Shown here piece by piece: positions 43,701 through 64,000 of a DNA stretch of 64,000 nucleotides. The notes below the pieces were generated by a model. The model saw only the letters and a list, made by a program, of their open reading frames with translations, was not told where the DNA came from and searched no databases. The stretch is from the NCBI GenBank assembly GCA_047947115.1, contig CP170459.1, positions 2,048,001-2,112,000 of the forward strand, written 5' to 3'. The first letter of the stretch is position 1. Each line of letters opens with the position of its first letter. This stretch comes from Verrucomicrobiota bacterium (GTDB taxonomy: Bacteria; Verrucomicrobiota; Verrucomicrobiia; Limisphaerales; AAA164-E04). A program made the translations under genes and the position numbers.

Positions 43701-44729
43701 AAGTCCCGGGGTGAGTTCGTTGATTTTTTGTTTCAGGTTTTGAATGGTTTTCAACGGGTTTTCACCGTAACGAACCACCACCACACCGCCGACCGCTTCT
43801 GCACCTTCTTTATCCAATGCTCCGCGACGCAACGCCGGTCCAAAGGTAACATGGGCCACGTTGCGTACATACACCGGAACGTTGTCCCGCACTTTGATAA
43901 CCGTGTTTTCGATGTCTTTCAGGGATTTGATGAAGCCGATGCCCCGGATGAAATATTCGACATGGTTGACTTCAACCGTTCGCGCGCCGACGTCCACGTT
44001 GGACATTTGGATGGCTTTGAACACTTCCTGCAGCGACACATCAAACGCCCGCATCGCATCGGGATCGACATCCACCTGATACTCCCTGACGAATCCCCCC
44101 ACCGAGGCGACCTCGCTGACACCGTCCGCTGCCAGGAGGCCATATCGTACGTAGTAATCCTGAACGGATCGGAGTTCATCCAAATCCCAACCTCCGGTCG
44201 GGTTGCCATCGGCATCCTGTCCTTCGAGTGTATACCAAAACACCTGCCCCAGGGCTGTGGCATCCGGTCCAAGTCGTGGCTGAGTGCCTTCCGGGAGTGT
44301 GCCAGCGGGCAGGCTTGCAAGTTTTTCGAGGATGCGGGATCGCGACCAGTGAAAGTTGATATCCTCTTTGAAGATCACGTAAATGGATGAAAACCCAAAC
44401 ATGGAATAGCTCCGAACGGTTTTCACTCCGGTTAATCCCATCAGGGAAACCGTTAGAGGATAAGAAATCTGATCCTCCACATCCTGTGGTGAGCGTCCCA
44501 TCCACTCCGTGAACACAATCTGCTGGTTCTCTCCGATATCCGGGATGGCATCAACCGGAACGGGATCGCGTTGAATACCGTCGATCTCCCATTCGAACGG
44601 GGCCACGAACAAACCCCATCCGATGAGAAACAGGGTTCCCAGGACAACGATCAATTTGTTGTGAAGGCAGAAATCGATGAGTCGTTCGATCCAGCCTTGA
44701 GGTGAATCGTTATTCTTCATGGGAATCAT
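40719..44729 (-). CDS. cusA: CusA/CzcA heavy-metal efflux RND permease
   Basis: DAIPDIGENQQIVFTEWMGRSP, GPDATALG, GIAIAIGAMVD, RVRPCLMT. Confidence 0.93.
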   Translation of the reverse strand: MIPMKNNDSPQGWIERLIDFCLHNKLIVVLGTLFLIGWGLFVAPFEWEIDGIQRDPVPVDAIPDIGENQQIVFTEWMGRSPQDVEDQISYPLTVSLMGLTGVKTVRSYSMFGFSSIYVIFKEDINFHWSRSRILEKLASLPAGTLPEGTQPRLGPDATALGQVFWYTLEGQDADGNPTGGWDLDELRSVQDYYVRYGLLAADGVSEVASVGGFVREYQVDVDPDAMRAFDVSLQEVFKAIQMSNVDVGARTVEVNHVEYFIRGIGFIKSLKDIENTVIKVRDNVPVYVRNVAHVTFGPALRRGALDKEGAEAVGGVVVVRYGENPLKTIQNLKQKINELTPGLPSKTLDDGTVSQVRIVPFYDRTGLIKETLNTLQVALTEEILITIIVVIVMLMHLRSSVLIAGLLPIAVLMCFSAMKLFGVDANIVALSGIAIAIGAMVDMGIVICENILKQLEEAAPNEHPIVVIRKASSEVGQAVLTAVSTTVVSFLPVFTMEAAEGKLFKPLAWTKTFALLASVVVALTVIPPLAQILFTGRITGKTVRRFSFGTMMVLGSFLLLVQLVRWASGGEPSVIGWLIGLAALLTGLYHLLAHRLPAKVQHRVPKTINYLAAAIVCFTLTSHWLPLGPEKGMMSNLIFVIALIGGLLGLVALVQRNYGPMLTWCLRHRLAFLTLPIALVTLGCGVWLGFDALFGWIPGSIRTWRPVSMLAHQFPGMGKEFMPALDEGSFLYMPTTMPHASIGESMDAMRKQDLSIRQIHEIDTVVGKLGRADTPLDPAPVSMVETIINYHPEYLLDDQGHRLTFQFDANKIDSFRDLNGNPVPAPDGEPYQVKGSFQRNASGNLIPNDSGKPFRIWRPALNPEWNEGRAPWPGVQSENDIWDLIVDYAEVPGSTSAPKLQPIAARLVMLQSGMRAPMGIKVKGPDLETIEQVGLQLERLLKQAPKVNPATVIADRTVGKPYMEIEIDREAIARYGIRLGEVQEVIEVGIGGKRISTTVEGRERYPVRVRYMRELRDQLESLGRILVPAPDGSQIPIEQLAHINYRRGPQNIKSEDTFLLGYVLFDKQPGLAEVEVVESAQNHLKQQIETGQLVLPPGVSYTFAGSYENQVRSEQKLRLVLPLALFAIFIILYMQFKSTTTTMMVFSGILVAWAGGFLMLWLYGQDWFLNVSLLGVPIRELFQMHTYHLSVAVWVGFLALFGIASDDGVIMATYLDQSFEKHKPGTIAEIRKATVEAGKRRVRPCLMTLATTVLALIPVLTSTGRGSEIMVPMAIPTFGGMSVVVITMFVVPVLYAAVKEFEIRHKLDARFAGVLSVASLFVLPILSGVIFGKESK

Positions 44730-46704: not shown

Positions 46705-48116
46705 GGTTGGGTCGTTTTAAGTGATTGGGTGGAGTCGGGTAACAGTGAATGTGTGCCGAGGAGCTTTTCCAAGTTGGCTGTTGCAATGGCTCGATCTGCC
46801 AGGGCGCGTTGATATGACAACTGGAATTCCAGGAGCAAGCGTTGTGCATCGATGAGTTCCAGGAAATCTGATTGCCCGGCCTGATAGGATTGCTCCGCTA
46901 CTCGCAGAGCGTTTTCGGTCAGGGGAGTCAAAGAATTTTTATACAAACCAAGTTTTCGCTCCGCATCCCTGTAGTTGAACAGCGCCATGGCAAGATCCGT
47001 TTGCAATTCATTTTCACGCTGCTTCAAGCGGAGTTGTGCTGCGGAAGTGTTGGATTCGGCCTGGCGAACAGCGGCCTTGTTTTTGCGGTTCCAGATGGGA
47101 ATGTTAAAGGCACCGGTGATCATCACCGGATCTTTGCCGTTGTCGCTTATCCCTGCTGTTGCCGATGGGGCGGTTTGGATGTAATCCAGCCCCAACGTGA
47201 AATCCGGTCGATTGTTTTTGAGGGTCAGTTGGATGGATTTCCGGCTTTTTTCCACTTCGGCCTGCAAGGCCGCCAGGTCCGGGTGTTGCAACAGCATGGT
47301 ATCCATAGAGGTTTTGCTCGGTAGCTGTAAGGTCTGAGTGTTTCCAAGTTTTGGGACAGGAAGGAAGGTGTTCGGGGGGCGATTCATTTCCGTGTTGAGT
47401 CTTGTGGTCAGGGGAAGGATCATGTCCTGAAGGCTCAGCAGTCGATCTTCGAGCTTTCCAATCTCGACCTGCGCTTTCACGACTCCTGTGACGTCACTAC
47501 CGCTTCTGAAACTAGCCTGTGCAACGCGTTCGAGGTGTTTCATGAGTTCAATGTTTTCCTGGGTGATCCGGATGGATTCATGCAGATAAGCCAGCTCGTT
47601 CCATGTTGTTTTGACGGATTGAAACAATCTGCGCTTGGTTGATTCGTAGACCTGCCAGGCGGCTTCTGCATCGTGATCGGCCATCTGGCCTGCCAGGGTT
47701 CGTTTTCCAAACCATGGAAACATTTGGGAAAGCCCCACACGTTGTTGCTGTGGGCCGACTCTTGTCTCAACTTCACGGATGAAATACCCGTAGGAGAACT
47801 TGGGATCCGGCAGCGCCGTCACCTGAGGGCTTTTTTCAAGAGCAGCTTGCCACGCTTCAAAAGCGGCTTTCATCCCTGGGTGTCGCATTGCCGCCATGGA
47901 GAGCACATCTTGCAGGCTTGCGTCCGGACTGAGTTCGGGATGATTTAATTTCGTTGGTTGAACGGGTGTTAGGGCACCGCTTCCAATCGGGTGTGAGATT
48001 GCTTCTGTCCGCTCTGCATCATGCCTGGTCTTTCCGGAGGCGCATCCTGTCAGGGCTCCGATCAAACCACTTAATATCAATTTGTTTGCAATAGAAAAAT
48101 TAGCCGTTGTTTTCAT
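46701..48116 (-). CDS. TolC/CusC family outer-membrane lipoprotein
   Basis: LTGC lipobox, LPDP, SQMFPWFGK, FLELIDAQR. Confidence 0.92.
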   Translation of the reverse strand: MKTTANFSIANKLILSGLIGALTGCASGKTRHDAERTEAISHPIGSGALTPVQPTKLNHPELSPDASLQDVLSMAAMRHPGMKAAFEAWQAALEKSPQVTALPDPKFSYGYFIREVETRVGPQQQRVGLSQMFPWFGKRTLAGQMADHDAEAAWQVYESTKRRLFQSVKTTWNELAYLHESIRITQENIELMKHLERVAQASFRSGSDVTGVVKAQVEIGKLEDRLLSLQDMILPLTTRLNTEMNRPPNTFLPVPKLGNTQTLQLPSKTSMDTMLLQHPDLAALQAEVEKSRKSIQLTLKNNRPDFTLGLDYIQTAPSATAGISDNGKDPVMITGAFNIPIWNRKNKAAVRQAESNTSAAQLRLKQRENELQTDLAMALFNYRDAERKLGLYKNSLTPLTENALRVAEQSYQAGQSDFLELIDAQRLLLEFQLSYQRALADRAIATANLEKLLGTHSLLPDSTQSLKTTQP

Positions 48117-48223
48117 GGTGGTATCTCATTGGATCAATGGTGTTTGTTTGTGTCAGTACGCACACAAACACAAAGGAGGATCATCATCGGAAACGTACAC
48201 ACGTCACCTGGAAGATCTTTTGA

Positions 48224-48580
48224 TCATATGAGATACGAGCAGAACAACGTGTAGGCGGGAATGCCGGTCGACTTCACCGCAAGCGGAGGGGCGAATGAAG
48301 ACATCCTGACATCGGGGTCCAACGCGGCCAAATGAAATGACTGGATCATTTTGGCCAGGAGGGAAATCTTCAACTGAGTTTCCGTTTGTGGAGGTGTTGT
48401 GGGTGTTTCAGGTGTGTTGGGTTGAGATGCATCCACGCAGCAACTGTCTCCACCGCACTTGCAGTGACAGGGCACGGTAGTTTCGGCGTTCAACGACATA
48501 CCCACAGCCTGCATCGTCGCGCCCAGTTGCCCGGCGACGAAGATCAGCATCAGAAGAATGGATGTCGTTTTCTTTAACAT
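48224..48580 (-). CDS. Cys-rich small leader protein upstream of the metal-efflux operon
   Basis: N-terminal TM segment, PCHCKCGGDSCC, C-terminal APP...YTLFCSYLI. Confidence 0.7.
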   Translation of the reverse strand: MLKKTTSILLMLIFVAGQLGATMQAVGMSLNAETTVPCHCKCGGDSCCVDASQPNTPETPTTPPQTETQLKISLLAKMIQSFHLAALDPDVRMSSFAPPLAVKSTGIPAYTLFCSYLI

Positions 48581-48972
48581 TGTCTCTGGGTAGTGTAGTC
48601 TAGGTGCCAAAAAATGCGAGAGGAATTTAATAGGTGGAGGGGCGGGGCGCAGGTCAAAAATTATAAATCCAAATCTGGAGGGGCAAACGCCGCTTTGCTC
48701 CCACTTCTATGCTCAGGACATATGCATGCCTTACGGTAGCGAAGGACATACTGCAAGCATTCGAACACCAGTGGCTTTCCGCGTTCCATCTCAATTGATC
48801 GGGAATGATTCAAGGAGAAGATTTGGGAACCGGGTGGCACCGGTCCCTCCTTTTCAAAATACTGAACGGCGCCCGATACCTCGATACCTCGGAGCACCAG
48901 AGTGCGCTTGCATCTTTCAGGGAACAATGTGAGTATCTCGCCAATCCATTTATTCAAATCATATCCACGATC

Positions 48973-50391
48973 ATGCAAATGTTTCTTCGTCGACTTTTGG
49001 TGTGCTCTGTTTTGAGCACGGTTCTTTTTGGTTTCAACGTTTTTGGAGCCGCCAAACCCAACTTCATCCTTATCTTTATTGACGACCAGGGGTATGGCGA
49101 TTTGAGCTGTTTTGGTTCAAAAATCATCAAAACACCCAACATCGACAGGCTGGCCACCGAAGGTCGTAAGTTTACGAGTTTTATGGTGGCATCGCCTGTG
49201 TGTACTCCATCTCGTGCTGCTTTGATGACTGCCTGTTACCCGAAGCGCGTTGGGATGCATCAGCATGTGTTGTTTCCTCAGTCCAAGAAAGGATTACATC
49301 CTGAAGAGCACACCATTGCAGATCATTTGAAATCTCAGGGGTATGCCACGGCATGTTTCGGTAAATGGCATCTCGGGCACCACCCGGAAGTGTTGCCGAC
49401 TTCGAACGGGTTCGATACTTACCTGGGCATTCCATACTCGAATGACATGAACCATCCCGACAACAAAGGAAAACCGCAAGGCGGTTGGCAGGGGATGGAT
49501 ATTTTGTGGAATGATCCTGAATCGACTCTAACCAAATGGAAGACTCCTTTGATTGAGGATGGGGAAATTGTCGAGTTGCCCGTTGATCAACGAACGGTGA
49601 CGCGGCGTTATACCCAGAAGGCAATTGATTTCGTAAAAGCTCACAAGGATGAGCCGTTTTTTGTTTATCTGCCCCATACGATGCCGCATATCCCGCTTTA
49701 TGTTCCCGACGATGTGCGTGATCCGGACCCTAAAAATGCTTACATCAACACGATCGAACATATTGACAGCGAAGTTGGGCGCTTGCTGGATGTGGTGGAT
49801 GATTTGAAACTGACCGAGAACACCTATGTTATTTACACCACGGACAACGGTCCCTGGTTGCAGTTCAAGCATCATGGTGGTTCCGCCGGACCGCTGCGTG
49901 CGGGCAAGGGAACGACTTTCGAAGGCGGACAGCGTGTGCCTTGTTTAGTGCGGGGACCGGGTATACCCGCTGGAACCTTGTGCGACGAATTGACAGGAAC
50001 GATTGATGTGCTTCCCACTATTGCCGCCCTTACTGGTAAGCCATTGCCATCCGATAGAAAAATTGATGGCATCGACGTTTCCGGACTTTGGAATGGAACC
50101 CTGAATCGCTCGCCGCGCACTGAATTCATTCACTACACATCGGTTGGCAATCTGGAAGGACTCAGGCAGGGAGATTGGAAAATTCTGGTCAAGAAACCGC
50201 GTAACCAAAACAATCAGCAAGGTGGCCCGAATCCGACTCAGATCATGTTGTTTAATCTAAGAGACGATGTAGGTGAACAAAACAATCTTGCCAGTCAATA
50301 TCCCGATCTCGTGAGGATACTCACCCAACGCATGGAAGCTTTGGATCAGGAAATCACCACGAATGCCCGCGCTCCTTGGGTCACTGAATAG
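48973..50391 (+). CDS. Arylsulfatase-family sulfatase
   Basis: KPNFILIFIDDQGYGD, CTPSRAALMT, GKWHLG, DNGP, EGGQRVP. Confidence 0.95.
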   Translation: MQMFLRRLLVCSVLSTVLFGFNVFGAAKPNFILIFIDDQGYGDLSCFGSKIIKTPNIDRLATEGRKFTSFMVASPVCTPSRAALMTACYPKRVGMHQHVLFPQSKKGLHPEEHTIADHLKSQGYATACFGKWHLGHHPEVLPTSNGFDTYLGIPYSNDMNHPDNKGKPQGGWQGMDILWNDPESTLTKWKTPLIEDGEIVELPVDQRTVTRRYTQKAIDFVKAHKDEPFFVYLPHTMPHIPLYVPDDVRDPDPKNAYINTIEHIDSEVGRLLDVVDDLKLTENTYVIYTTDNGPWLQFKHHGGSAGPLRAGKGTTFEGGQRVPCLVRGPGIPAGTLCDELTGTIDVLPTIAALTGKPLPSDRKIDGIDVSGLWNGTLNRSPRTEFIHYTSVGNLEGLRQGDWKILVKKPRNQNNQQGGPNPTQIMLFNLRDDVGEQNNLASQYPDLVRILTQRMEALDQEITTNARAPWVTE

Positions 50392-50600
50392 GCCCTCGGA
50401 CTTCATTTGCAGAAGCTGATTGTTGCCATTTCTATTTGCCAGCCTTTCAGTTGTCTTTTTTGGTGGGGAAGTGTCGTGATTATTCCATCGGTTGAAAGTT
50501 TGCAATGGCCTTGAACGATGGGGTGATGACGGAATTTCGATAAAATGGTGGATTGATCCATCCATAAATAGATTGACTTTTGGTAAGGTTTTGTAAATCA

Positions 50601-53600
50601 TTGGCCAACCAGTTATCAGTGACACGTTCGTCTTACAGCCTGGAGGCGTTGGAGCCTCGTGTGCTTCTTTCTGGGGATGGGCTTTCTGTTTTATCAGAGA
50701 GTCACGCGTCTTCTGGAGTCGAAGAAGATTTGTTCTGCGCTTCGGAGTCGTGTGAATTGATCCAGAATGAAACACAGGATGAAGTGACCGAATGGTTGAT
50801 TGACGGAGATCTTGATGCATTAGATTCTCTGTTCAACCAGGAGGGTACTTCGCAGGAGGACTGTATCTTCGCCGAAGAAAGTGACGCAGCGGGTGAGGCT
50901 GCAGTGAGCGGTCCACTTGAAGATGCTTCAGACGGTGAAACTGAGGAGCAGGGTGATGCTCCAACTTCCGATATTTCCAATTTTATTCCCGCTTCAGATA
51001 TCCTTTCCGAAACATCGCTTTTGGTGACGGATCAGCCGGGAGATTTCGATTTATTTTGCTATTGTTCACGTCTGGTTGAGACGTTGAATGTGGGCAATGC
51101 CCCCCCTGCTGGTGAAACCTGTTTGCCTGGCGAAAGCGCGAGGCACGATTTGCCATACCATGTTGCATCTCAAACGGTCGACCAGGTCTCTGGTTTGTTC
51201 GTCTCTTTAACGCCAGAGCAGGCAGAGTCTGTTCTGGACTTGTCTATGAGTCCGCAAGGTTATGTGGCTCAAGTCGTTGATGCTTATGGTAAGCTTGTGG
51301 CCGAGCCGACAGAACTGTCGGTCGATGCGACGGTTGTCATCACGGGCAGTGACGACCTCGACGATACTCTTACCATCCGATTGCCGGAAGTGCACGCGGA
51401 TGGATGGCTTGCCATTGCTTTTGAAGGCGGAGATGCAGGGTTTGATTCATTGGTTCTGGAAGGGCCGGACGGTGTGCTTGTTCAGTACGTTGCTGCAGGT
51501 CCTGATTCCGGTTCCATTCAAGGTGAAGGGTGGGAGATTCATTACACCGGACTTGAGCCCATTACCGACAACAGTGATGTGGCCGACCGGTTGTTCACCG
51601 CGACCGGCTCGGATGATATCATTCGCTTGAAGGACGCCGATGAACCTGGATTCATGACCATTGAAAGTGACAATGGTTCTTTTGAGAGTATCAGCTTTCC
51701 TAATCCAACTTCCTCCCTGACCATCGATGCCGGCGGAGGAAATGACCAGATCATTATTGAAAGTTTGGATCCGGCCTTTGTCGCGGGAGCAAGTGGTTCG
51801 GCTGATCCGGAATTGCATCTTCAAGGTGGCGCTGGCACGGACACCGTTTTTGTAAGTTATCCGGCGGACCTGATTCTCACCGATGCTTCCTTGGATGGTG
51901 GAAGTGATTTCAATTTGATTTTTGATGATGTTCCCGATCAAGTCGTGGTTTCGGGCGGAGCGATTGACGCTTCGGCTTTTTCCGGCGTGGCTGTGGTGGT
52001 ACCGGGTGTGCCGGATTGGCAGGACGAGGGCCCCGGGCTGATTCATTCGGATCTCACAAAAGATGCTCCTTTCCCTGAATCAGGTGCAGTTGAAGCGATC
52101 GCAGTACATCCGGGAAACGATCAAATCCTTTTTGCCGCGAGTGTAAACGGTGGCGTTTGGCGGACTGAGAATGGAGGGCAGACCTGGACGGCGATGACCG
52201 ATGAACTGCCATCACTGTCCTTTACGTCCATTGCCATACATTCCCATGATGCGGATGGTAACTTGGTGGATGCTTCCACGCCTGTTGGCAAATTGATTGT
52301 TTTTGCTGGAACAGGTCAACGAAGCGCCAATCACGAAGGTGGATTGGCGATCGGTTTGCTGCGTTCTCAGGATGGAGGAGATACCTGGGAATTGGTGGGT
52401 GTGCCGGATATGACCGGTTTGCCGCTCAGCGCCATTGTGGCAAAACGCATTTCCGGGCAGGACATTGTGCTTGTTGCAGCTGAAGGAAAAACGGTCAGAG
52501 AATCCAGCAAAGTGGAAATGCTTGGTTCACCGGATTTGACCTTCAGCGACCAGGGTGCATCATCGGATACCATCACGCGATCCGCTGGCAGCTGGATAGA
52601 TGATGGTTTTGCATCCGGTCACGAGATTGAGGTAGATGGTACCACCCGAAATGATGCGACATACAAGATTGCTTCCGTCACTGCGACCGTAATGACCTTG
52701 GAGGCCGACTCAATTCTGGTGGATGAAGCCAGTGTCAGCGGAGTAAAGGTCATCACTTCCTTGAAGGTCAAGTTGTTGAAAGAGGGAGGTGTTTTTCGTA
52801 GTGTGGATGGAGGGGATACATTTACCCAGATTCAGCCCATTGACCCTGCCGCGCAATTTTTCCCTCTGGACGAGCGCCATTTTCCGACCGGATCTGTGAC
52901 AGATCTGGCCATTGATCCTGGGGCGGAAGAACGCATCTATGCCGGTGTTCGAGGCGGCGGGGTCTATCGTTCCGATGACGCCGGAGCTACTTGGACCGCC
53001 GTGAATACGGGGTTAACCCTGGCAACCGATGACTGGGACAATGACGGAAACGGCTATGTCGATGATGCTGATGAAACGGCAGTAGGGGTGCAACGTATCT
53101 TATTAGCGGTCCAGGCAGATGATGCATCGGCGACAAACGAGGTCTATGCTGCATTGGTTGGTGGGAATGATCATTTCATAGGGATATTCAAATCCGACGA
53201 TCAGGGGGCTAATTGGTCTTTGCTCGGAGAAGCTCCCGGACGTCCCGAATTTGAATTGAGTTTTCCTGTCACATCGAATGCCGGGCTCATCGACTTCCTC
53301 GATAACAATCCCGCTCAGGATACGGTTGTGCGATCGACTGGCAGTTGGATTCGGGATGGCTTCCAAGCGGGGGATTACATTGAAATAACCGGATCTGCTG
53401 CAAGCGATGGGGTTCATTTGGTGGCTTCCGTCAGTCATGACACATTGACGATGGATGCGGGTGTTGCCCTGGATACCGAAGTTTATTTGCGCAGTATCAA
53501 AGGGGCTCCGGAATTGACCTTTGCCGATGCGAATCCCGATACTATCACGCGTAGCGTGGGGAGCTGGGTTGAGGACGGGATTGTGAAGGGGCATGAGATC

Positions 53601-56600
53601 AAGATCTCCGATACAACGGGCAATAATGGCACCTATACCGTGACCGGAGTCACTCCGCTGGTGTTGACGCTATCTGGTTCGGATTCACTCACAGCAGAGA
53701 CCATTCAGACCGCAGTAGAAATCAAAGCAAGTGCCACCGAATACGATGGTCCGGGAACGCTTCAACCTCAGATTCACCGCGGCAGCCAGGGCGAATTGCA
53801 TTTCTCAGTCACGGCGGATGCCGATGGCAATATCTATCTGGGTGGGGACCGGCCTGCCCATATTTTCCGTTGGGATCAAACAACCAGCCAATGGGATCAC
53901 ATCACCAAGCAAAACGCCACGGGCACACGTTCGCATGCTGACTCAAGAGTCTTGATTCTGGATGGAGCAGGGCAGCTTTTGGATGGGGATGATGGAGGCG
54001 TGTATCGTTTACTTAACCCTGGTGACAATGCCACGGTGACCATGACGGGATCTCCGCGCGTCACTTTCGTGGATGCCAATCCTGACCAGGTTCAACGCTC
54101 TGCCGGAAGCTGGATCACGGACGGGTTTGTCGCAGGTCAACGCATTGGTGTGACAGGTAGCTTTTCTTTGTATGGGAATGACGGGGTTTACACGATTGCC
54201 TCAGTTACCGCTTCCACTCTTACACTGGTTGCATCTGATCAGCTTCAATCCGAAGGCCCCAGATCTGGCGTCACAGTTGTCTCTTATCCCGCTTTGGCCG
54301 GCAATCCGAACCTGACTTTTGCGGATGCCTCGCCGGATACCATCACCCGTTCGGCCGGGAGTTGGGTTTCCGATGGATTTGCTGTCGGACATCACATTGA
54401 AGTATCAGGTTCATCGAGCAACGACGGCATTTATACGATTTCCGAATTGACCGCGACTCTGTTGAAAGTAACGGCAGCCGATAGTCTTGCTGCCGAAGGG
54501 CCCGTCAATGGAATCCATGTCTGGCAGAATCGTGAGTGGAAGAGTCTGAATGCATCCCTTGGTGCCACGGAGATTCTTTCCATGTCTTACGACCCGGTCA
54601 GCAATGTCTTCTTCGCCGGTACTCAGGATAATGGTGTCATTGAACAGCCTTTTCCGGCTGACGGTGTTGACAATGACGGGGACGGTATCGTAGATGAACC
54701 GGATGAACGCTTCAGGTGGTCTGTTGTGCTGGATGGACGCGGACTTCCGCCGGGCGATGGCAACATCACCGCCGTGGCGTTGTTGGATTTGGATGACGAT
54801 GGGCAGATTGACGAAGTGCGTCGCTATACCATGTCCAATAATCTCGTCAGTTTTACCCAGCGCCTTTTTGACGAAAATGGAGCACTGATCCCGGGAACGA
54901 ATCAACTTGTCGGACTTGCTTCTCCTGTGTCGCAAACCGTGAACTTCACTGTCAACATCGGCAGCGACCAACTTACCATCAATGATCATGGCTTGGTGAC
55001 CGGAGACGGACCCTTCAAAGTGGACGTTTCCGGAGGAGGTAGTCTTCCGGCCGAACTGTCAACAGATGCGCTATATTGGGCCATTCGGGTTTCTGACAAC
55101 GCCATTCAGTTGGCCGCCAATCAGCAGGATGCTTTGGATGGAAGCCAGATCAATTTGACCACGGATGGCTCGGGGACACGTCAGTTGACGAAACCTTTCC
55201 TTAGCTTTGGCAATGCCGCCATTGACGATCCCACCGATCAGATAACCATTCCCAATCATGGTCTGGCAACGGGAGCCGGGCCGTTCCGTCTGGTGACCAG
55301 TCGGGGTAGTGATTTTGGAAGTGGCCTTTATCCCTACATAGATTACTACGTCATTCGGGTGGATAACGATACCATTCAACTGGCACGTTCCAAGGCTTTG
55401 GCCAATGCGGGAACCGATTATTCCATCAAGGACAATGGTTCCGGAGCTTTCCAGCTTGTCTCTCGATTGAGTGGTTTGAACGGCAACGATGCTGCTAAGT
55501 ACACCAGTGGTTTTCGGGAGTTGGCATACGCTGTCAATCAAGTGGATGACACCCGAATGTTGCTTGGTTTGAATTCGGTTTATGCCAGCGTGAATATCGG
55601 TAGTGACGCGACTCCTTATTACGATGGTTTGGGAACGGTGCAGAGATTGTTCACTCATCCAAGCAGCGGTCAGTTCACTTCACTGGTTTACGGAGGTTCC
55701 AAGAATGGTGTTGAGAATCCCGATGTGGTTTATGCCTCCAGCTGGTCTCGCATTTATATTCAGGTTGCCAATGCCATGACGGGTAACCCCAATCTGGTAT
55801 TTGCGGACAATGGGGCAAGCGAAGATACCATTACCAGATCGTCCGGAGATTGGGAGGCGGACGGGTTTGCTCCCGGTCAGGTGATTACCATCAGCGGTTC
55901 GTCTAACAACGATCACTCTTACACTGTTCAAGCCGTGACTCCTACCGTGTTAACGGTGACTTCCGGAGACAGTCTTACTGCCGAAGGGCCCGTGAATCAG
56001 GTGGCTGTAAGTCGTTTCAGCAGGGAAACCACCCCCGGTTCGGAAACAATCAACGGGTTGGTGCTAGATCCTGATGATTACGACATCGCTTATGCCATTT
56101 CGGATGCAAACGTGTATCAGCGCACTGGACCTGGGAAATGGGAAATCATTTCAACCGAACTATCCAGCTTGTCATTGAAGAGTATTGAATTCGCCCAGGT
56201 AGGAGGGACGGACATCCTGCTGGTTGGCGGTGTGAATGGATTGTTCCGGGCAATCGATCCGCAGCCAGGAGTGACCTGGACGGAAGTGGGGCGCGGCTTG
56301 CCCAATACCTTGCTTCGTGACACAGATTATATCAGTCGCGATCCGGCTGATGCCCCGAATCCACACAACTTGTCCCGCGAAGATATTCTGTTGGTGGCGA
56401 CTCAAGGTCGCGGTGCATGGTTGACATTGTCGCCGGATGTTTATCTGGACGAAATGACTGAAATTCACATTGTGGGCGATGGCGGCAATGATGAGATCAA
56501 GATTGAACGTCGTGCAAGCAATGCCTCATTGCTGGACATCTACGTCAATAGCAATTCACCTGTTTATACACTACCTGCTAGTGCCGTTTCCAAAATCACC

Positions 56601-59600
56601 GTGGAAGGTAATGATGGAAATGATACGCTCACCTTGGACAGCACGCATGGACCGCTTTCTTTCCCGGGGGATGCTTCCGATCCTTCTAATCCCGAAGGGA
56701 TCTTTTTCAACGGAGGTGGCGGTACCAATCAATTGGTTCTGGAAGGTGGAAAAAGTCACAGCCTCACCCAGGCGAGCGATGCAGGTGTCACAACTCTGAC
56801 CATTCAGGATATTCGGGCAAATCAGCAAGCGATGTTTGCGTTTGAAAATGCCACGCTCGACAACAATCTCGTGCCGGCATCCGATCTGGAAATCTTTTAT
56901 CATGTGATGACTGAGATCTTTTTCGGTTATTCGCATTGGATGGGGTCAAATGATTCGTTGAGTGGTGATGGGATGATGGATGAATTGGCCTTGATTGGTT
57001 ACTCGCTGCCACGCGTCTTGAACGGATCTCAAACAAACGATCTTGATCCGGTCGGTGATCCGGTCGAGGAGGCTACTGAAATGGTTCAGAGCGGATCAGT
57101 TCGGTCAACTTCGGGACTGGAACGCCTGATTGAATCGGGTGAAAACGGATTTAGCCTCTCTGAAATTGGTGACACAATCCTGACCCTTGATGCTTTACGG
57201 GCCCGTCTGGATGATCTGGATGACGTGGCTGGGAATGTTGTGTTGGATGAAATCACCGATCGTGATGGTGACAGTTTGGCTGACGCCATTTTGACCATCC
57301 AAATACAGCGCACCTTGAATGGACAGGCAGCTTTGGAATTGCAGACTGAATACGGGGTAGGCGAGATTGATATCTCAGGGGACATGCATGTATCGGTCGA
57401 TGTGGTGCTGGACTTGGTGGTTGGTATTGAGACGACCGATGGGGTTTTCATTGAGACGCTGGGTGGAGCATCCGGCCTTAGTGTAAGTGGACTTGAACTT
57501 GAAGGCTCTTTGGAGGGAACCGGTCGATTGGGCTTCCTGGAGGTCTATCTTGAGGAATCCCGGCTTGTGGTCGATCCCGCATTGACCTTCGGAATCACGC
57601 TGTTGGATCCTTCTGGCGGGGATGAGATTCGTTTTGATGAATTGATGGCGTTGTTATCCGATCCCTCATCCTTGAGCGATCTGGCCGAGTTTGCCATTAC
57701 GGGATCTGCTTCTGATGACCTGGAGTTCAGTGCTGTCGTTCATGCTGCGGCCATTCTTCCCGGATTGGATGATCCATTCGATCTGGGGGATGCGGAGATG
57801 ACAGCGACATGGAGTGAGATTACCGATATTGATTCTGTGGCAATCAGCTTCAGCGTGGGGGCTGGTGAGGACTTGATTGGGTTTTTGGAAGTGACCGCGC
57901 AACGAGTGGTTGAGGCGTTGGAAACCGTTCAGAATACCCTTGAACAATTCAGTGTCGATATCCCGGAAATCGATCAAACCCTCGACGATCTCCTGCGGTT
58001 TGTGGATGGATTTGAAGACACTATTCTTTCTCCACTCCGTGAACCTGTGCATGGATCCGTATCGACAGCGACGATTCAGGATATGATTCGTTCCTGGAAC
58101 CGCGGATTGAACGAAGAACTGGAAACGGTAGGGCTTCACTTCGATGCCGACGAACTTGAGTTGACCTATGATTTCGAATACAGCCATTTCTTCGGTCGCG
58201 ACGGTGATGCCCTGGACCTTTCCTTTGATCTGGGCGGGGCGGGATCGTCCCTTGGTATGGATGCCGAAGTGTCTGTCGAGGGGACGGTGGGATTGCAAAC
58301 TACTTTGGGTCTCGACCTGGGGGCTTTGATCGGTGGTGGAGATTTTGATGACATTTTCTTTTTACAGGACACCTTGTTTGAAGGGGAATTGAATCTGAGC
58401 TTCACTGAACTGGATACGGACCTGACGGCGGGTTCGCAAACATTCAATCTTGAAGATGGTGAGCTGGTGTTGGGAGTGAGCCTGACCATTGATCCATCCG
58501 GTGCGGACGATAATGCTGACAATAAGCTGAGCCTGACTGAATTGACTTCCGCTTCCTTGGAAGATCTGGTTGATCTGGACGCTACAGGTACACTGGATGC
58601 AACGCTTCCTTTCAATGCCGATCTGAGCCTTGATTTGTTGAACGGAGCCGGGCTGGCGACGGAAGGGGATTATGTCATTACCTTGCATACGGATGATTTG
58701 TTCGGATCGGATCCCATGGACGTGACGGTCAGTCTGGATGGCAGTGTGACGGTGTTGGGACAGACGCTTGAGGGGCTCTTTACTTTCCAATCCACCACCA
58801 TGGAAGGCGAATCGGTTACTATTCTTTCGGGTGATCCGTTTACGCTGACTTTGTTTGAAGGCGCAGGGGGTGGTACCGCCCTGGTCTCTGCAATGGGTAG
58901 CGGTCACTTCGTGGTAACCGACGACGGAGTGGCAGGCGAAGCCGAGGCTGCCCTTGTGGTTGGAGTGGCCGGTTTTGCCAACCTGACAGGTGATTTTGAG
59001 GTTAGGGTCAATACCACCGAATCAGACTTCGATGCTACCTTTACGGTGGGGGGCGATTCGGTGACACTGGATCTGCCTGAAGGCCCTTACCTGCGCGTTG
59101 CGGGCGAGGATGTGAGTGTCGACTTGAGCATCGGTTCCTTCACCCAAACCGTCAGCGGCGATTTTGCTTTCGAACAAACGGGCGATGGCGATAACCGGCA
59201 AGTGGTCCTCGGGTTGAACAACGTTTCCATGACCATGGAAGCCGGCGCTTTGACCCTGGAAGCAAATGATGGTTCAGGCGCGTTCCTGCTTCAGTCAGCA
59301 GGTGTGGCAGGTGAGGCGACGATCGGAGAAGTCATTTTGAACGGCGTTCCTGGTGTTACTTTGAATGTGGTGGATCTGGCCATTCGCGTGAACAACACCG
59401 GTATGGACATCAACGACGGTGAAGCCGAACCCGGCCCGCTTACCATCGAGGTCGGCGGGGAAACCCTTTCGTTTGAATTCAGCGGTGCTTACGAGCAGGA
59501 TTATCTTTCCGTTTCAGGTGGCGCCGAAATGGTGTTGGCGGATTTCATCACTCTGTACGGAAACTTCACCATTGAGCGATCCGAACTGGATACCAATGCC

Positions 59601-62600
59601 GACACGATTGTGGAGGACGTAATCAAGGTGGGGGTTGAATCCTTGAACTTCACTTTGAGCGCCGGTTCATTTGAAGTGTTGTCCTTCTCTGATGGAACGG
59701 GCGCTTTTGTCTTCACCGATGAGGGCGTGGCAGGAACGGCTGACATGCAGTTCGAGCTGGGAATCATCGGTCTCAGTGGCGACATTGACATGGAATTGAA
59801 CACACTGAGCCGCGCGATTGAAGCCTCGGTGCCGGTGGCCTCTGGCGCGGTTGCATTTAACTTCACTGATACCGAGTTCCTTCGGGTATGTGTCACCAAC
59901 GCATTTCTCAATCTTGGCTCCACTTCGATTCCGATCCCGGGTGATTTGTTGGTCGATGTTGACACGGGCAGCGGTTCGGTCGATGTCGTGGACAAGACCA
60001 GTGGCACGGTGCTGGTTTCGGTTGCTTCGGATGGTACGATTTCCACAGGGCTTTCCTTTGACGACTTTGCGATTTCCGGTCCGTTTGAATTCATCAGTTT
60101 GCTCCGGCAATTGCTGATCTGGTTCAATGAAATGAGCGAATCGGAAGCGTTCAATGTCGAGATTCCATTCACCGATAACACGCTTGGGGAGGCGCTGGAC
60201 TGGACGCAGTTGTTCCTGGATGAAATTTACTCCAACATGATCAGCGTCGAGTTGCAGTCCGGTGAGGATATTGACGGCATGATCGCGGATGAAGGGGATG
60301 GCATTGTGGATCTGGTTGATGTGAATTTCATGTTGCAGGTCGATGACGAAACACCGGTCGAAGTCACCGTCAACGGTTCGTTCAGTTCGATTGAAAACGC
60401 CAGTGATCCTTTCGATGCATCAACCTTGGTTGGTCTTTTCAACAACGCTTTCCTCGCTGCTGGTGCGGGGCTTTCCTCACAAGTGGTCGCCCGCAAACAT
60501 GAAGAAACCGAGCCGGGTGTCGATCGATTTGTGATTGCCTTGCTGCCGGAAGCCATTGCCAAGTTGTCCTCCTTGAAGCTGGTGGAACTGGACGAGGATA
60601 TGGAAGGGTTGGGCTTTGGTCCGAGTGACGGTAATTACGGGGATGAGGACGGTAGCGAAGCCAATCCATATACAACCGAGCAGACCGCCATCGAGACACA
60701 TCGCTACACCACCGAACAATTCTTTGTCGCGTTGGGCGATCTGCTGGGGATACCCGTTACTTACAATCCGGCCCAGTTGGTTTACACCTATACCGTCGAT
60801 AAGGAAGCGACCTATGAGACGACGGTTCCGTTCAACTTCAGCGGGGACTTGGGCGACCTCGGCGGAGTGGCCGTGGAAGGGTTGGTCCGGATTGAAGCGA
60901 CTGTTGGGTTTGAGTTTACTTTGGGCTTTGACCTGGGCGCCGACGAAGTTCCAAGGATTCTCACATCGACCTTTGTGCCGACTCCAGCGAACGGCCGGAT
61001 CAGTGAAGACGCCAACTTTGACATCTTCTTCAATGATGATCTTGCAGCCGTCAGTTTCTCTGGCGCCAATGCCCTGACCGCCGCTTCCACTGCTGATAAT
61101 ACCAGTATCAATGATTTGGCGGATGATCTGAATGACCTGTTTGCCACGGTAGATTACAACGGGTCTCCGGTCAGTGACTGGTTGGTGGCGCAGAAGGCCG
61201 GCAACGGTCTGGCCATTTCGGTGCGTCAGGAACATCTGGGAGTGATCAATCGACTGAGCACCCGTTCAAATATCGATGATACGTTCGCCACCGAGATGGG
61301 ATTCGGAATCGAAGTGCTCGATCTGGACGGCAATGAAGTGACCGAGAATGATCGCTACTTTGTTTCCACATCGCAATCGGGAATGAAGGGGTTGTTTCTG
61401 GACGATGTTTCCCTTTCGGCCTCTCTGGCGGCCTACACTGAGACCGACACAGGAACTTATCCGGATGCCAATCCCGATGGGTTGACGGGAAGTCTGCAAT
61501 TTGGTTTTGTCGAATTGTCCACGAGTGAGGGTGCCTTCGGAACCTTGGAATATGATGGAACCACACCGACCGAAATCGGGATTGATCTGGGATTGGAAAA
61601 CAGTGGCAGCGGTGAAAGCCGGTTTTATCTCGCGGATTTGTTCCAGTCCCTGACGTCCACATCATTTGGTGACATGGTCAACGGACCGGATTTCTCGGGC
61701 AGCTTCCTGGCACGATTGCAGGGATTAAGCGTGAATGGATTCGATATCGGAGACCTGGCTGGAAGTGACCCTGAAATCTCCGTTTGGATCCCTGATATCA
61801 ATGATCTCGAATACAACGAAGACCCCTATGATGGCACCAACACCGGTGTGTTTGTGACATACCCAAATTTGGGACACTTGCAGAACTTCCAAAACTTCAG
61901 TTTCGCTCAATTGATCAATGCGCTTCGGGTATTGGTCGACAACCTGAGCGAATTGAGTGCGTTTGGATTCCTGGACAAGAAGATTCCGGTGATTGATGCC
62001 AGCGTGAATGATCTGCTGGATTATGCTGCGAAGTTCGCCGAGTTGGTGGAAGAAGCAGCGAATCAACCTGCCGGGTCATTGCAGGCAGCGATCACCGAAC
62101 TGGAATCCCAGATCGAATCCCTGTTCAATCTTGATCCCAGCATCCTGACCGTTTCCATTGATACCAATGGAATCACTCCAGACCAACTGGTATTGAGCGG
62201 GGGAGATGGCTCGAATCCGGCTGGCACCACTCTGGATCCAGAAGGCGACAACAATGGACTTGTCATTGAGAGCGCATCCAACGGCACGGGGGATAACGGC
62301 ATCTCGATACGTCTAGTTGGTGATTCAAGCGTGAGTGGAAATGATGCCAATGTAGAGTGGGACAGTGTGCAGCGAGTCCTCACACTAGGTATCCGGGGCG
62401 GAGAGACGACCGCTGCAACGTTGCGTGATGCCATCAATGCGCTGTCGGGAACGCCCTTTTTTGCCTCTTTGCCGGGCGGTGAGGATGGTAGCGGGACATT
62501 GAGGACAACCGCATTGAAATTCGGGTTCGACTTTACCGCTGCCTATGGCAACCTCCTACCGCTGCAATTGGATCTCAATGCGTTGGTGAATCAATTGGCA

Positions 62601-64000
62601 GGCGACAGCGGTGCTGCAGCTTTCCTCGATGCAGCCACCACGCTGATCCAGGTCGAAGGATCCGGGTCATTGGAAGTCAGCGCGAGTGCTTCGTTGATTT
62701 TGGATTTTGGAATTGATGTGACCAATCCCACATCACCCGAGGTGTTCTTCTATGACACCACCGGAATTTCGCTTCTGGCTAAGGTGCTTGGACGCGATAT
62801 TTCCATTGAGACCTCGCTTGGTTCCGTGATTGGGATCTATATTGAAGACGGGGAAGTGACCATTGATCAGGATGGTGATCCGGATACTGATGCGGGCGAC
62901 GACGATCGAGGTGTTGAGTTCGGCCTGACGCTGAACGACACGAATGGTGATTCCAGGATTTATTTCTCCGAAAACTGGTTCACCACCGACATCATTGACA
63001 TTTCCCTGAATGGCGGACTGAGCGTATCCCTGCCAATCTTTGCTCCGGTGGAAGGATTGCCGCTGGGCGGGACAGGGGATCAGAACGAGGACGGACATCC
63101 GGACAACGAGTTGTATATTGAAATCTCCGATTTTGCCGGACTGTTTTCCGGGGAGGATGTGGTCACCATCATTGCCCCGGATCTGAACAACCTGATTCAA
63201 AATGTTGATTTCTGTGCTGTTTTAGAAAATGCGGGTTTGCTGATCAATGGACTGGATCAACTGCTCGGTTCGATCGAAGAAGGGCTGCAGGATCTGGTGG
63301 CATCCAATTCACTTCCAATGCTTGGGGATGGTTTCAGTGATGCTGCGAACTTTATCTCGAGTTTCCGAAATGGTTTGCTCGCGTCCATACAAGCCGAGTT
63401 GGATGCGGCAGGCGGCAGCGCAGTGACCGTTGTTGAAAACGCGCTCAAGCAAGCTTTCTGGGAAACGCTGGGACCGGAAGGGTTGGATTTGTTGGTAGAC
63501 CCTGATTCGGGTGAAGCGCTGGATCCATCACTGGGTTATCATCAGCTCGCCGTGATGCTGGACTGTGAAGCAGGGTTGGTGGTTGATCTGCGATTGCGCA
63601 AGACCGTCGCCTTGGTGGACACCAGCGAGAATCCGATTGATTTTGACATTGGCGTGCCCGGATTCGGGTTGGAAGTGAATGGAAATGTCAGTGTCGCCAT
63701 TGGATTTGATCTCAAGTTCGGCTTCGGGTTGAACAAGGAGGACGGTTTCTATTTCGATTCCTCGGCAGGTGCGGATGATCCCGAGCTGCGAGTCTTCTTC
63801 GAGGCCAGCATTCCCGGTTTGTCGGCGACGGGGAGTTTGGCATTCCTGCAACTGGACGTCGGAGATGATCCGGATGATCCGAGTTCGTTTGTCGGTCAGT
63901 TTGTTGTGGATCTGAAAGATCCCAATCACGACGGAAAACTGACATTTGCCGAGATGAGTTCGAGCGGGGTGCAGTTCTCGGACATATTTGATCCGGGACT
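50601..64000 (+). CDS. Giant LEPR-XLL-domain extracellular protein (>4,460 aa, runs off window; absent from ORF track)
   Basis: Manual translation: LANQLSVTRSSYSLEALEPRVLLSGDG...; the same frame is open at the end (SSGVQFSDIFDPG). The track lists no stop-terminated ORF in this frame. Start could be 50580, 50601 or 50619. Confidence 0.92.
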   Translation, partial: MANQLSVTRSSYSLEALEPRVLLSGDGLSVLSESHASSGVEEDLFCASESCELIQNETQDEVTEWLIDGDLDALDSLFNQEGTSQEDCIFAEESDAAGEAAVSGPLEDASDGETEEQGDAPTSDISNFIPASDILSETSLLVTDQPGDFDLFCYCSRLVETLNVGNAPPAGETCLPGESARHDLPYHVASQTVDQVSGLFVSLTPEQAESVLDLSMSPQGYVAQVVDAYGKLVAEPTELSVDATVVITGSDDLDDTLTIRLPEVHADGWLAIAFEGGDAGFDSLVLEGPDGVLVQYVAAGPDSGSIQGEGWEIHYTGLEPITDNSDVADRLFTATGSDDIIRLKDADEPGFMTIESDNGSFESISFPNPTSSLTIDAGGGNDQIIIESLDPAFVAGASGSADPELHLQGGAGTDTVFVSYPADLILTDASLDGGSDFNLIFDDVPDQVVVSGGAIDASAFSGVAVVVPGVPDWQDEGPGLIHSDLTKDAPFPESGAVEAIAVHPGNDQILFAASVNGGVWRTENGGQTWTAMTDELPSLSFTSIAIHSHDADGNLVDASTPVGKLIVFAGTGQRSANHEGGLAIGLLRSQDGGDTWELVGVPDMTGLPLSAIVAKRISGQDIVLVAAEGKTVRESSKVEMLGSPDLTFSDQGASSDTITRSAGSWIDDGFASGHEIEVDGTTRNDATYKIASVTATVMTLEADSILVDEASVSGVKVITSLKVKLLKEGGVFRSVDGGDTFTQIQPIDPAAQFFPLDERHFPTGSVTDLAIDPGAEERIYAGVRGGGVYRSDDAGATWTAVNTGLTLATDDWDNDGNGYVDDADETAVGVQRILLAVQADDASATNEVYAALVGGNDHFIGIFKSDDQGANWSLLGEAPGRPEFELSFPVTSNAGLIDFLDNNPAQDTVVRSTGSWIRDGFQAGDYIEITGSAASDGVHLVASVSHDTLTMDAGVALDTEVYLRSIKGAPELTFADANPDTITRSVGSWVEDGIVKGHEIKISDTTGNNGTYTVTGVTPLVLTLSGSDSLTAETIQTAVEIKASATEYDGPGTLQPQIHRGSQGELHFSVTADADGNIYLGGDRPAHIFRWDQTTSQWDHITKQNATGTRSHADSRVLILDGAGQLLDGDDGGVYRLLNPGDNATVTMTGSPRVTFVDANPDQVQRSAGSWITDGFVAGQRIGVTGSFSLYGNDGVYTIASVTASTLTLVASDQLQSEGPRSGVTVVSYPALAGNPNLTFADASPDTITRSAGSWVSDGFAVGHHIEVSGSSSNDGIYTISELTATLLKVTAADSLAAEGPVNGIHVWQNREWKSLNASLGATEILSMSYDPVSNVFFAGTQDNGVIEQPFPADGVDNDGDGIVDEPDERFRWSVVLDGRGLPPGDGNITAVALLDLDDDGQIDEVRRYTMSNNLVSFTQRLFDENGALIPGTNQLVGLASPVSQTVNFTVNIGSDQLTINDHGLVTGDGPFKVDVSGGGSLPAELSTDALYWAIRVSDNAIQLAANQQDALDGSQINLTTDGSGTRQLTKPFLSFGNAAIDDPTDQITIPNHGLATGAGPFRLVTSRGSDFGSGLYPYIDYYVIRVDNDTIQLARSKALANAGTDYSIKDNGSGAFQLVSRLSGLNGNDAAKYTSGFRELAYAVNQVDDTRMLLGLNSVYASVNIGSDATPYYDGLGTVQRLFTHPSSGQFTSLVYGGSKNGVENPDVVYASSWSRIYIQVANAMTGNPNLVFADNGASEDTITRSSGDWEADGFAPGQVITISGSSNNDHSYTVQAVTPTVLTVTSGDSLTAEGPVNQVAVSRFSRETTPGSETINGLVLDPDDYDIAYAISDANVYQRTGPGKWEIISTELSSLSLKSIEFAQVGGTDILLVGGVNGLFRAIDPQPGVTWTEVGRGLPNTLLRDTDYISRDPADAPNPHNLSREDILLVATQGRGAWLTLSPDVYLDEMTEIHIVGDGGNDEIKIERRASNASLLDIYVNSNSPVYTLPASAVSKITVEGNDGNDTLTLDSTHGPLSFPGDASDPSNPEGIFFNGGGGTNQLVLEGGKSHSLTQASDAGVTTLTIQDIRANQQAMFAFENATLDNNLVPASDLEIFYHVMTEIFFGYSHWMGSNDSLSGDGMMDELALIGYSLPRVLNGSQTNDLDPVGDPVEEATEMVQSGSVRSTSGLERLIESGENGFSLSEIGDTILTLDALRARLDDLDDVAGNVVLDEITDRDGDSLADAILTIQIQRTLNGQAALELQTEYGVGEIDISGDMHVSVDVVLDLVVGIETTDGVFIETLGGASGLSVSGLELEGSLEGTGRLGFLEVYLEESRLVVDPALTFGITLLDPSGGDEIRFDELMALLSDPSSLSDLAEFAITGSASDDLEFSAVVHAAAILPGLDDPFDLGDAEMTATWSEITDIDSVAISFSVGAGEDLIGFLEVTAQRVVEALETVQNTLEQFSVDIPEIDQTLDDLLRFVDGFEDTILSPLREPVHGSVSTATIQDMIRSWNRGLNEELETVGLHFDADELELTYDFEYSHFFGRDGDALDLSFDLGGAGSSLGMDAEVSVEGTVGLQTTLGLDLGALIGGGDFDDIFFLQDTLFEGELNLSFTELDTDLTAGSQTFNLEDGELVLGVSLTIDPSGADDNADNKLSLTELTSASLEDLVDLDATGTLDATLPFNADLSLDLLNGAGLATEGDYVITLHTDDLFGSDPMDVTVSLDGSVTVLGQTLEGLFTFQSTTMEGESVTILSGDPFTLTLFEGAGGGTALVSAMGSGHFVVTDDGVAGEAEAALVVGVAGFANLTGDFEVRVNTTESDFDATFTVGGDSVTLDLPEGPYLRVAGEDVSVDLSIGSFTQTVSGDFAFEQTGDGDNRQVVLGLNNVSMTMEAGALTLEANDGSGAFLLQSAGVAGEATIGEVILNGVPGVTLNVVDLAIRVNNTGMDINDGEAEPGPLTIEVGGETLSFEFSGAYEQDYLSVSGGAEMVLADFITLYGNFTIERSELDTNADTIVEDVIKVGVESLNFTLSAGSFEVLSFSDGTGAFVFTDEGVAGTADMQFELGIIGLSGDIDMELNTLSRAIEASVPVASGAVAFNFTDTEFLRVCVTNAFLNLGSTSIPIPGDLLVDVDTGSGSVDVVDKTSGTVLVSVASDGTISTGLSFDDFAISGPFEFISLLRQLLIWFNEMSESEAFNVEIPFTDNTLGEALDWTQLFLDEIYSNMISVELQSGEDIDGMIADEGDGIVDLVDVNFMLQVDDETPVEVTVNGSFSSIENASDPFDASTLVGLFNNAFLAAGAGLSSQVVARKHEETEPGVDRFVIALLPEAIAKLSSLKLVELDEDMEGLGFGPSDGNYGDEDGSEANPYTTEQTAIETHRYTTEQFFVALGDLLGIPVTYNPAQLVYTYTVDKEATYETTVPFNFSGDLGDLGGVAVEGLVRIEATVGFEFTLGFDLGADEVPRILTSTFVPTPANGRISEDANFDIFFNDDLAAVSFSGANALTAASTADNTSINDLADDLNDLFATVDYNGSPVSDWLVAQKAGNGLAISVRQEHLGVINRLSTRSNIDDTFATEMGFGIEVLDLDGNEVTENDRYFVSTSQSGMKGLFLDDVSLSASLAAYTETDTGTYPDANPDGLTGSLQFGFVELSTSEGAFGTLEYDGTTPTEIGIDLGLENSGSGESRFYLADLFQSLTSTSFGDMVNGPDFSGSFLARLQGLSVNGFDIGDLAGSDPEISVWIPDINDLEYNEDPYDGTNTGVFVTYPNLGHLQNFQNFSFAQLINALRVLVDNLSELSAFGFLDKKIPVIDASVNDLLDYAAKFAELVEEAANQPAGSLQAAITELESQIESLFNLDPSILTVSIDTNGITPDQLVLSGGDGSNPAGTTLDPEGDNNGLVIESASNGTGDNGISIRLVGDSSVSGNDANVEWDSVQRVLTLGIRGGETTAATLRDAINALSGTPFFASLPGGEDGSGTLRTTALKFGFDFTAAYGNLLPLQLDLNALVNQLAGDSGAAAFLDAATTLIQVEGSGSLEVSASASLILDFGIDVTNPTSPEVFFYDTTGISLLAKVLGRDISIETSLGSVIGIYIEDGEVTIDQDGDPDTDAGDDDRGVEFGLTLNDTNGDSRIYFSENWFTTDIIDISLNGGLSVSLPIFAPVEGLPLGGTGDQNEDGHPDNELYIEISDFAGLFSGEDVVTIIAPDLNNLIQNVDFCAVLENAGLLINGLDQLLGSIEEGLQDLVASNSLPMLGDGFSDAANFISSFRNGLLASIQAELDAAGGSAVTVVENALKQAFWETLGPEGLDLLVDPDSGEALDPSLGYHQLAVMLDCEAGLVVDLRLRKTVALVDTSENPIDFDIGVPGFGLEVNGNVSVAIGFDLKFGFGLNKEDGFYFDSSAGADDPELRVFFEASIPGLSATGSLAFLQLDVGDDPDDPSSFVGQFVVDLKDPNHDGKLTFAEMSSSGVQFSDIFDPG

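Follow-up and report, generated by a model that had tools for sequence, protein, structure and literature searches.

Phage endosialidases carry one barrel nested in the six-bladed catalytic propeller of a trimeric tailspike. In the K1F enzyme, the barrel holds a sialic-acid binding site and affects host discrimination (PMC12632334). Inserted lectin domains are known in Asp-box propellers, and in the Vibrio cholerae sialidase ('type 2') the propeller is likewise interrupted by inserted accessory domains, although its inserted fold differs from the one described here, its architecture is fixed and the enzyme is known (PMC2716378). On phage tail tubes (NBD2, MED16, PF08813), FCCH domains point outward (PMC13576161), and a weak FCCH match is reported in a hub protein (PMC13612043). 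The present locus lies in a stretch of 64,000 nucleotides (nts) from a Verrucomicrobiota bacterium (GenBank assembly GCA_047947115.1, contig CP170459.1, positions 2,048,001 to 2,112,000 of the forward strand; hereafter the window), and encodes six copies of a small module with the signature DTITRSxGSWxxDGF, inserted in loops of a predicted double propeller that forms the head of a giant protein. Barrels joined to propellers, lectin inserts in Asp-box propellers and FCCH domains on phage tails are already known, and this is not a new kind of system. With the endosialidases (phi92, structure 4hiz, and K1F) it shares the barrel fold and an accessory barrel joined to a beta-propeller; unlike them, it has six plus two modules on a cellular double seven-bladed propeller, and sequence identity is 19%. 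In the literature searched, which comprised article texts without supplements and few subscription papers, no description of this module or this head was found.

An earlier reading of the window from its letters and open reading frames (ORFs) only, here called the sequence-only reading, had reported six copies of the signature. All six are present in one forward-strand ORF, each within about 20 nts of the position given there, and the peptide it quoted is copy 3. Positions in the window and in the protein, in amino acids (aa), are as follows.

52530..52763, + strand: barrel copy 1, aa 651-728, carried by the long hairpin that joins strands 2 and 3 of blade 3
53283..53501, + strand: barrel copy 2, the most divergent, aa 902-974, between blades 5 and 6
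53508..53735, + strand: barrel copy 3, aa 977-1052, in tandem with copy 2
54054..54290, + strand: barrel copy 4, aa 1159-1237, between strands 3 and 4 of blade 7
54306..54533, + strand: barrel copy 5, aa 1243-1318, in tandem with copy 4; the copy folded alone
55788..56021, + strand: barrel copy 6, aa 1737-1814, in the second propeller, beyond the modelled part

The module is about 77 aa long, the identity of the other copies to copy 5 is 34-58%, and a profile built from the six scores each copy at 107-121 bits. Searching the 6.08-Mb genome with this profile gave no further copy elsewhere. The copies had been described as scattered rather than forming one tandem block, which holds in that they occupy four separate sites, but two of these sites hold tandem pairs (1+2+2+1). 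A public run contains a DNA contig that covers 49979-56958 without gaps and with 8 differing letters (the run may be the window's own source), and a same-genus genome holds all six copies, with copy 5 being 96% identical; therefore, the arrangement is not an assembly artefact. None of the contigs of four runs skips a module, which carries little weight because contigs drop rare variants. Contigs from RNA libraries overlap parts of the region and also neighbouring genes, and may hold DNA. Contigs of two RNA runs show dense differences and a 96-base skip or replacement at 51404-51674, which indicates that the N-terminal part has a divergent allele in the population.

When copy 5 was folded from 75 sequences, a seven-strand all-beta domain was obtained (predicted local distance difference test (pLDDT) 93, predicted template modelling score (pTM) 0.83), and the same strand pattern was seen at copies 1-5 in a 1,200-aa model of the head. 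The predicted module has the six-stranded closed antiparallel barrel of the FCCH type, with middling Z scores that are tied with other barrels. The top matches in the PDB were E1 FCCH domains (Foldseek TM score 0.6-0.7 but E of at least 0.02; VIA Z 7.1, root-mean-square deviation (rmsd) 2.3, 70/77 residues aligned), and the nearest solved folds after them were YaeB (7.0), the Mystique tail tube 9n71 (7.0), the phi92 endosialidase barrel (6.9) and the FCWL1 head-tail protein 9jlf (6.2). The phi92 barrel (4hiz, residues 261-340) superposes with rmsd 2.6 over 70 aligned residues and is of the same barrel fold. Tied Z scores from model comparisons of this kind speak for a shared fold and say nothing of function. 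Predicted viral proteins matched the module model at TM scores of 0.75-0.82, and in the Atlas search unnamed clusters came first, and a mostly viral E1_FCCH cluster scored 0.89, which we treat as a lead only.

The description of the modules as E1 FCCH-like is therefore borne out in fold, by comparison of models, but not in family membership, as the Pfam family E1_FCCH (PF16190) was matched by 0 of the 75 aligned modules at E<=0.1 and nowhere within the protein's first 2,100 aa. Among Pfam and NCBIfam families, only DUF5666 was hit, below its cut-off, and the Pfam family of the endosialidase barrel was not among the Pfam matches of the 75 modules. Sequence search of solved structures gave no significant match, the best being tail tube 9n71 at E 0.03 with a deep profile, and the six-copy profile returned chance matches. 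Thus, compared with the FCCH domains on phage tail tubes (NBD2, MED16, 9n71, 9jlf), which have the same fold (Z 6.2-7.1) and face outward on virions, the DTITRSxGSWxxDGF subtype lies outside any Pfam family above noise and is repeated here in a cellular protein.

The propeller motifs named by the sequence-only reading (HADSR, GTQDNG, ATQGRGAW and others) were all found, and modules are inserted in loops as it proposed, but the predicted scaffold comprises two seven-bladed propellers instead of one.

52077..54026, + strand: first propeller, of the Asp-box type with seven blades, aa 500-1149, in which copies 1-3 lie; GH74 is its best match (Z 29.6)
54567..56423, + strand: second propeller, aa about 1330-1948, from GTQDNG to ATQGRGAW; the model is confident only to about aa 1540

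The head model covers aa 480-1679 (1,200 aa, 43 sequences, mean pLDDT 72.5), with the last 140 residues not resolved. Its best matches are the GH74 xyloglucanases (Foldseek E 2e-11; Z 29.6), in which two seven-bladed Asp-box propellers stand in tandem (6p2m, 2cn2; Z 28-30), whereas the head is only 15-21% identical to them, and no GH74 sequence match was found for it. The stretch aa 500-1149 (model residues 21-670) also superposes on seven-bladed WD40 propellers over about 280 residues with rmsd 2.8, and this first propeller closes despite its interruption by copies 1-3. The head is thus likely two tandem seven-bladed Asp-box propellers, the second being deduced from its motifs past about aa 1540; it holds copy 6 and a pair of another module described below. 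A ten-bladed Vps10/sortilin propeller was considered and rejected, with PF15902 scoring 31.1 bits against a cut-off of 33 and the first domain closing with seven blades.

In a motif register that we assume for the GH74 catalytic Asp residues, not based on superposition, the two positions hold Val522 and Gln1349; in the same assumed register, Val is found at the first in 38/43 rows and Gln at the second in 39/43. Another polar set is conserved, namely H1119, D1121, R1123, D1138, Q1349, D1350 and D1393. Two short DxDxDGxxD loops within the propellers, at 53037 and 54669, presumably bind calcium.

By strand order in the model, loop 2-3 of blade 3 carries copy 1 and loop 3-4 of blade 7 carries copies 4-5, with the last strand of blade 7 likely following copy 5; copies 2-3 fall between blades 5 and 6. 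In Asp-box propellers, loop 2-3 belongs to the variable, functional face and loop 3-4 to the structural face (PMC2716378). From this placement, the barrels would project from both faces of the propeller.

Comparison of homologues for the presence or absence of inserts, proposed with the earlier reading, showed the same loops filled or empty, with 0-3 copies. At three sites within the modelled part, the loops of relatives differ in length in steps of about 80 aa (counts are from the 20 rows listed of 43 aligned). At site 3, the empty loop measures 19-23 aa (9 rows), rising to 99-106 aa with one copy (4 rows), 185-205 aa with two (3 rows) and 275 aa with three (1 row), and three rows have intermediate loops of 34, 44 and 125 aa; at site 1 it is either <=31 aa or 102-103 aa. 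Without its modules, the core is 834 aa, compared with 737-885 aa in five module-free relatives with defined ends. The module was found in 17 of the 120 propeller homologues listed, in a search whose score is raised by its presence, and 5 of these 17 carriers show neither HADSR nor GTQDNG nor a closing propeller motif. The modules are therefore inserted and not integral: the barrel is predicted to fold closed by itself, the propeller closes without it, and the same loops are empty in relatives. On these grounds, the idea that they are propeller blades is practically dismissed. The loop series with 0, 1, 2 or 3 copies is a natural series that shows the stepwise gain of nested domains by propellers.

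Side by side with these, a third barrel-like insert of about 80 aa was noticed by eye in blade 5 (query aa 855-875) of the relatives P0007, P0010, P0011 and P0015. An OmpA domain lies within the head of P0009 and P0011, and in P0011 it is inside blade 1.

The sequence-only reading had missed two copies of a different module of about 88 aa at 54942-55472 (aa 1455-1631), which form a fifth insertion site.

54942..55193, + strand: second-type module, copy a; matches phrog_30390 (E 3e-11) and the tail fibre family phrog_38233 (E 1e-5), with confident strands in the model
55203..55472, + strand: second-type module, copy b; matches the baseplate wedge family phrog_32294 (E 9e-8) and is not resolved in the model

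Copies a and b are 36% identical. A profile-profile comparison gave no match between the second-type and DTITRS modules (probability 0.1), the second-type profile consisting of 2 sequences, so that the two types may nevertheless be related, and a search of solved structures with the second-type module returned nothing by sequence. In the distant relative P0042 the loop of the second type holds true PF16190 barrels, and similar-looking inserts occur in six other relatives. A phage gene at L013:2616-3248, shortly upstream of a sheath-like carrier of the DTITRS module, hits the part of phrog_32294 that the second-type module also hits; the two types of module may therefore occur together in a single phage structural locus.

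Relatives of the DTITRS module occur in phage structural proteins, as had been supposed: all six copies match phrog_1236 (E 3e-6 to 2e-3), and three weakly match the major-tail family phrog_584. The viral scan gave 40 loci from 63 pattern matches, with identity up to 59%. A carrier of about 650 aa with two tandem copies is present in 18/40 viral loci, some of these carriers being cut by contig ends. One such carrier of about 655 aa has a DUF2586 sheath-like fold (TM score 0.83 by target); a sequence search of solved structures with it gave nothing significant. In the three loci checked, sheath-like carriers lie between capsid and tape-measure genes. Tail tubes of family PF18906 account for 3 of 20 carriers scanned, and against the solved tube 8xan the module-bearing stretch of a tail-tube carrier is a clean insertion; four records of annotated phages confirm tail-tube carriers. 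The best match of copy 1 among 153 modules is viral, at 57%. In a FastTree phylogeny of 153 rows and 77 columns, unrooted and mostly unresolved, there were 5 changes of viral label compared with a mean of 44 after shuffling (the 60 'giant' rows of the tree are a random sample of unknown origin). Thus, by this alignment, the tree splits viral from other copies beyond chance, and it gives no direction of transfer.

The same relatives bear on two other explanations of the modules. One is that the barrels bind proteins, either each other, in cell-cell aggregation or a lattice, or a partner on neighbouring cells. The phage copies sit on polymeric sheath and tube proteins with close neighbours, and E1 FCCH works within a protein complex, both of which are in line with protein binding, but the modules here are net acidic, and we consider this explanation unlikely. 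The other, suggested by the sequence-only reading beside a multivalent adhesin, is a phage decoy, in which the barrels would bind or mislead incoming phage particles. The resemblance of the barrels to virion domains is all that speaks for a decoy. In phages, the nearest carriers are sheath-like and tube proteins and not the tips that bind receptors, and the same domain is widespread in giant proteins without a propeller. Moreover, a decoy should presumably mimic the host receptor, whereas the module resembles a virion surface domain, and we consider the decoy very improbable.

The proposed profile search with the six copies was carried out among 1.84 billion representatives and gave 3,866 clusters (50% identity, E<=0.001), with up to 16 module copies per protein; these define a domain family that has no Pfam name. 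Propeller anchors were found in 13/165 carriers, and four more, missed by the pattern, also have a propeller, in a ranking that favours multi-copy proteins. Since this propeller is missing from most of the top carriers examined, which are long proteins, the module is specific neither to virions nor to propellers; on these sequence comparisons, it is a portable domain. Beta-helix or lyase-type domains were found in a few other carriers (P0242, P0195 and P0079, among 46 scanned). By eye, the module is inserted in a 10,591-aa ORF resembling a haemagglutinin-type beta-helix protein (L061, genome G183) and in a 625-aa ORF resembling a beta-helix protein (L044, genome G037). A genome-contig scan with one copy gave 5 loci only and is no measure of taxonomic range. 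In genome G001, contigs C53 and C99 (loci L058 and L059) share 99.2% identity over 18.6 kb, and each breaks off within the giant gene; because these contigs are likely a redundant assembly, the 12 matches of G001 are 6 copies counted twice.

Among themselves, the six copies have nucleotide identities of 0.43-0.59, and their identity at third positions is 0.14-0.43, near random, which excludes recent DNA-level copying of the modules. Compared with the same-genus gene, the ratio of nonsynonymous to synonymous substitution (dN/dS) is 0.14 in the modules and lower in the core (0.08) and the second-type modules (0.07). These sequence measures indicate that the copies are old and maintained under purifying selection. 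This result bears on a further explanation, namely that the barrels are tolerated passengers, selfish or neutral, which spread by in-frame insertion and have no function. Passengers would account for the patchy presence of the module (2/60 close relatives and 1/400 phylum genomes) and for its very many unrelated host proteins. The dN/dS of the modules speaks against them, although purifying selection could reflect only the need to stay folded, and so do the near-random synonymous sites and the lack of any copy outside this ORF; we regard passengers as quite unlikely. Synonymous divergence from the same-genus gene (L052) is 0.12-0.15 over 52017-56432 and 0.31-0.37 in the flanking parts of the ORF, and this lower divergence of the head is a hint of its more recent exchange as a block.

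The host of the modules is a single ORF that leaves the window.

50580..64000, + strand: giant protein gene, 5' part; a single ORF continuing past the window end to G000:C1:2121961
50637..50687, + strand: LEPR-XLL motif, aa 20-36; NF012209 at 25.3 bits, cut-off 17

The ORF starting at 50580 encodes a LEPR-XLL/RTX protein of 7,793 aa, in which the LEPR-XLL N-terminus is followed by the double-propeller head, a long unannotated middle, RTX repeats, Calx-beta and SdrD_B. The RTX repeats (C-terminal; PF00353, 223 bits), Calx-beta and SdrD_B domains lie beyond the window. With the LEPR-XLL giant RTX proteins (NF012209), it shares the N-terminal motif above the cut-off and C-terminal RTX repeats. 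Its domain make-up suggests a secreted, calcium-stiffened surface protein. LEPR-XLL is mentioned in passing in PMC10868602, the accessible text of which does not describe this head, and a preprint on giant genes (10.1101/2023.11.21.568195) contains 0 occurrences of phage, LEPR or FCCH. An acidic stretch of 2,373 aa at 56880-63998 is without a Pfam or NCBIfam match above noise, and like stretches follow the propeller in relatives.

For the role of the modules, we tentatively favor, at somewhat short of an even chance and by analogy with the endosialidases, that they are accessory low-affinity binding knobs adding avidity on a surface adhesin. The ends of the barrel presumably lie together, so that it could be inserted in nearly any loop without breaking the host fold. 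Recombination or duplication would have brought in the copies long ago, drawing on a pool that phages and other giant proteins have in common. The cleft of the propeller would then bind or cut a glycan while the barrels keep their grip, much like the nested barrel of the phage endosialidase, and with eight knobs around it a glycan-type propeller would gain avidity for the surfaces of polysaccharides or particles. A tested function of FCCH-type barrels on phage particles was found only for the endosialidase barrel.

Several observations weigh against such a binding role. Relatives use about 9 insertion sites (in a rough mapping, where several region ends are defaults), and placement is not centred on the cleft; copies 4, 5 and likely 6 are in the strand 3-4 loop, the structural face according to PMC2716378. 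Module-free propeller proteins are common, with 47 among 268 proteins screened. The Z of about 7 is middling and equals that of barrels that are not lectins (E1 FCCH 7.1, YaeB 7.0). The signature Trp is Phe in 149/686 aligned domains, which suits core packing as well as sugar stacking, and each of the acidic modules contains only 3-7 aromatic and 3-5 basic residues. For secretion, no type I exporter was found in the genome above the family cut-off, matches to TIGR01843 and TIGR03375 being below it; one adjacent pair of such sub-cut-off exporter-family matches lies near G000:C1:4158846-4161550.

Many of these points fit a structural role, in which the barrels would be ligand-free, stable knobs packing together or on the propeller, spacers or protease shields. 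The inserts on both faces and at many sites, the exchange of Trp and Phe, the conservation of mostly Gly, hydrophobic and turn residues, and the tandem pairs both here and in the phage sheath-like proteins are all consistent with it, and in the YSD1 tail tube an inserted domain 2, of a different fold, stabilises the ring and does not bind the host (PMC8718954). Nevertheless, the propeller folds without barrels in most relatives, and the polar set conserved among aligned domains (R 84%, D 79%, N 89%, E 74%) exceeds the evident needs of a spacer, although it could form internal salt bridges. Taken together, a structural role is less likely than not, but it ranks next to the binding role and not far below it. 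The 77-residue domain is predicted to fold alone, which, with the loop series, makes the question of barrel binding directly testable.

Beyond the binding knobs proposed for this protein, a broader idea, which we consider on the whole unlikely, is that the module is an unnamed, widespread binding domain traded by phages and bacteria, gripping like surfaces on tail sheaths and tubes and on giant proteins, and that the propeller is a scaffold whose interchangeable plug-ins, from this barrel and the second module to true PF16190 barrels, the third barrel-like insert and OmpA domains, let bacteria tune the adhesin head with virion-type parts.

Upstream of the giant gene, 40719-50391 holds what we take, by eye, to be a heavy-metal RND efflux trio (- strand) and a sulfatase (+ strand). 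At L057:14066-18877, the next gene downstream appears by eye to encode a 1,603-aa multidomain, likely secreted protein. This DNA occurs in 20 of the 24 public runs listed, and the runs that contain it are mostly estuary, marsh and seawater metagenomes.

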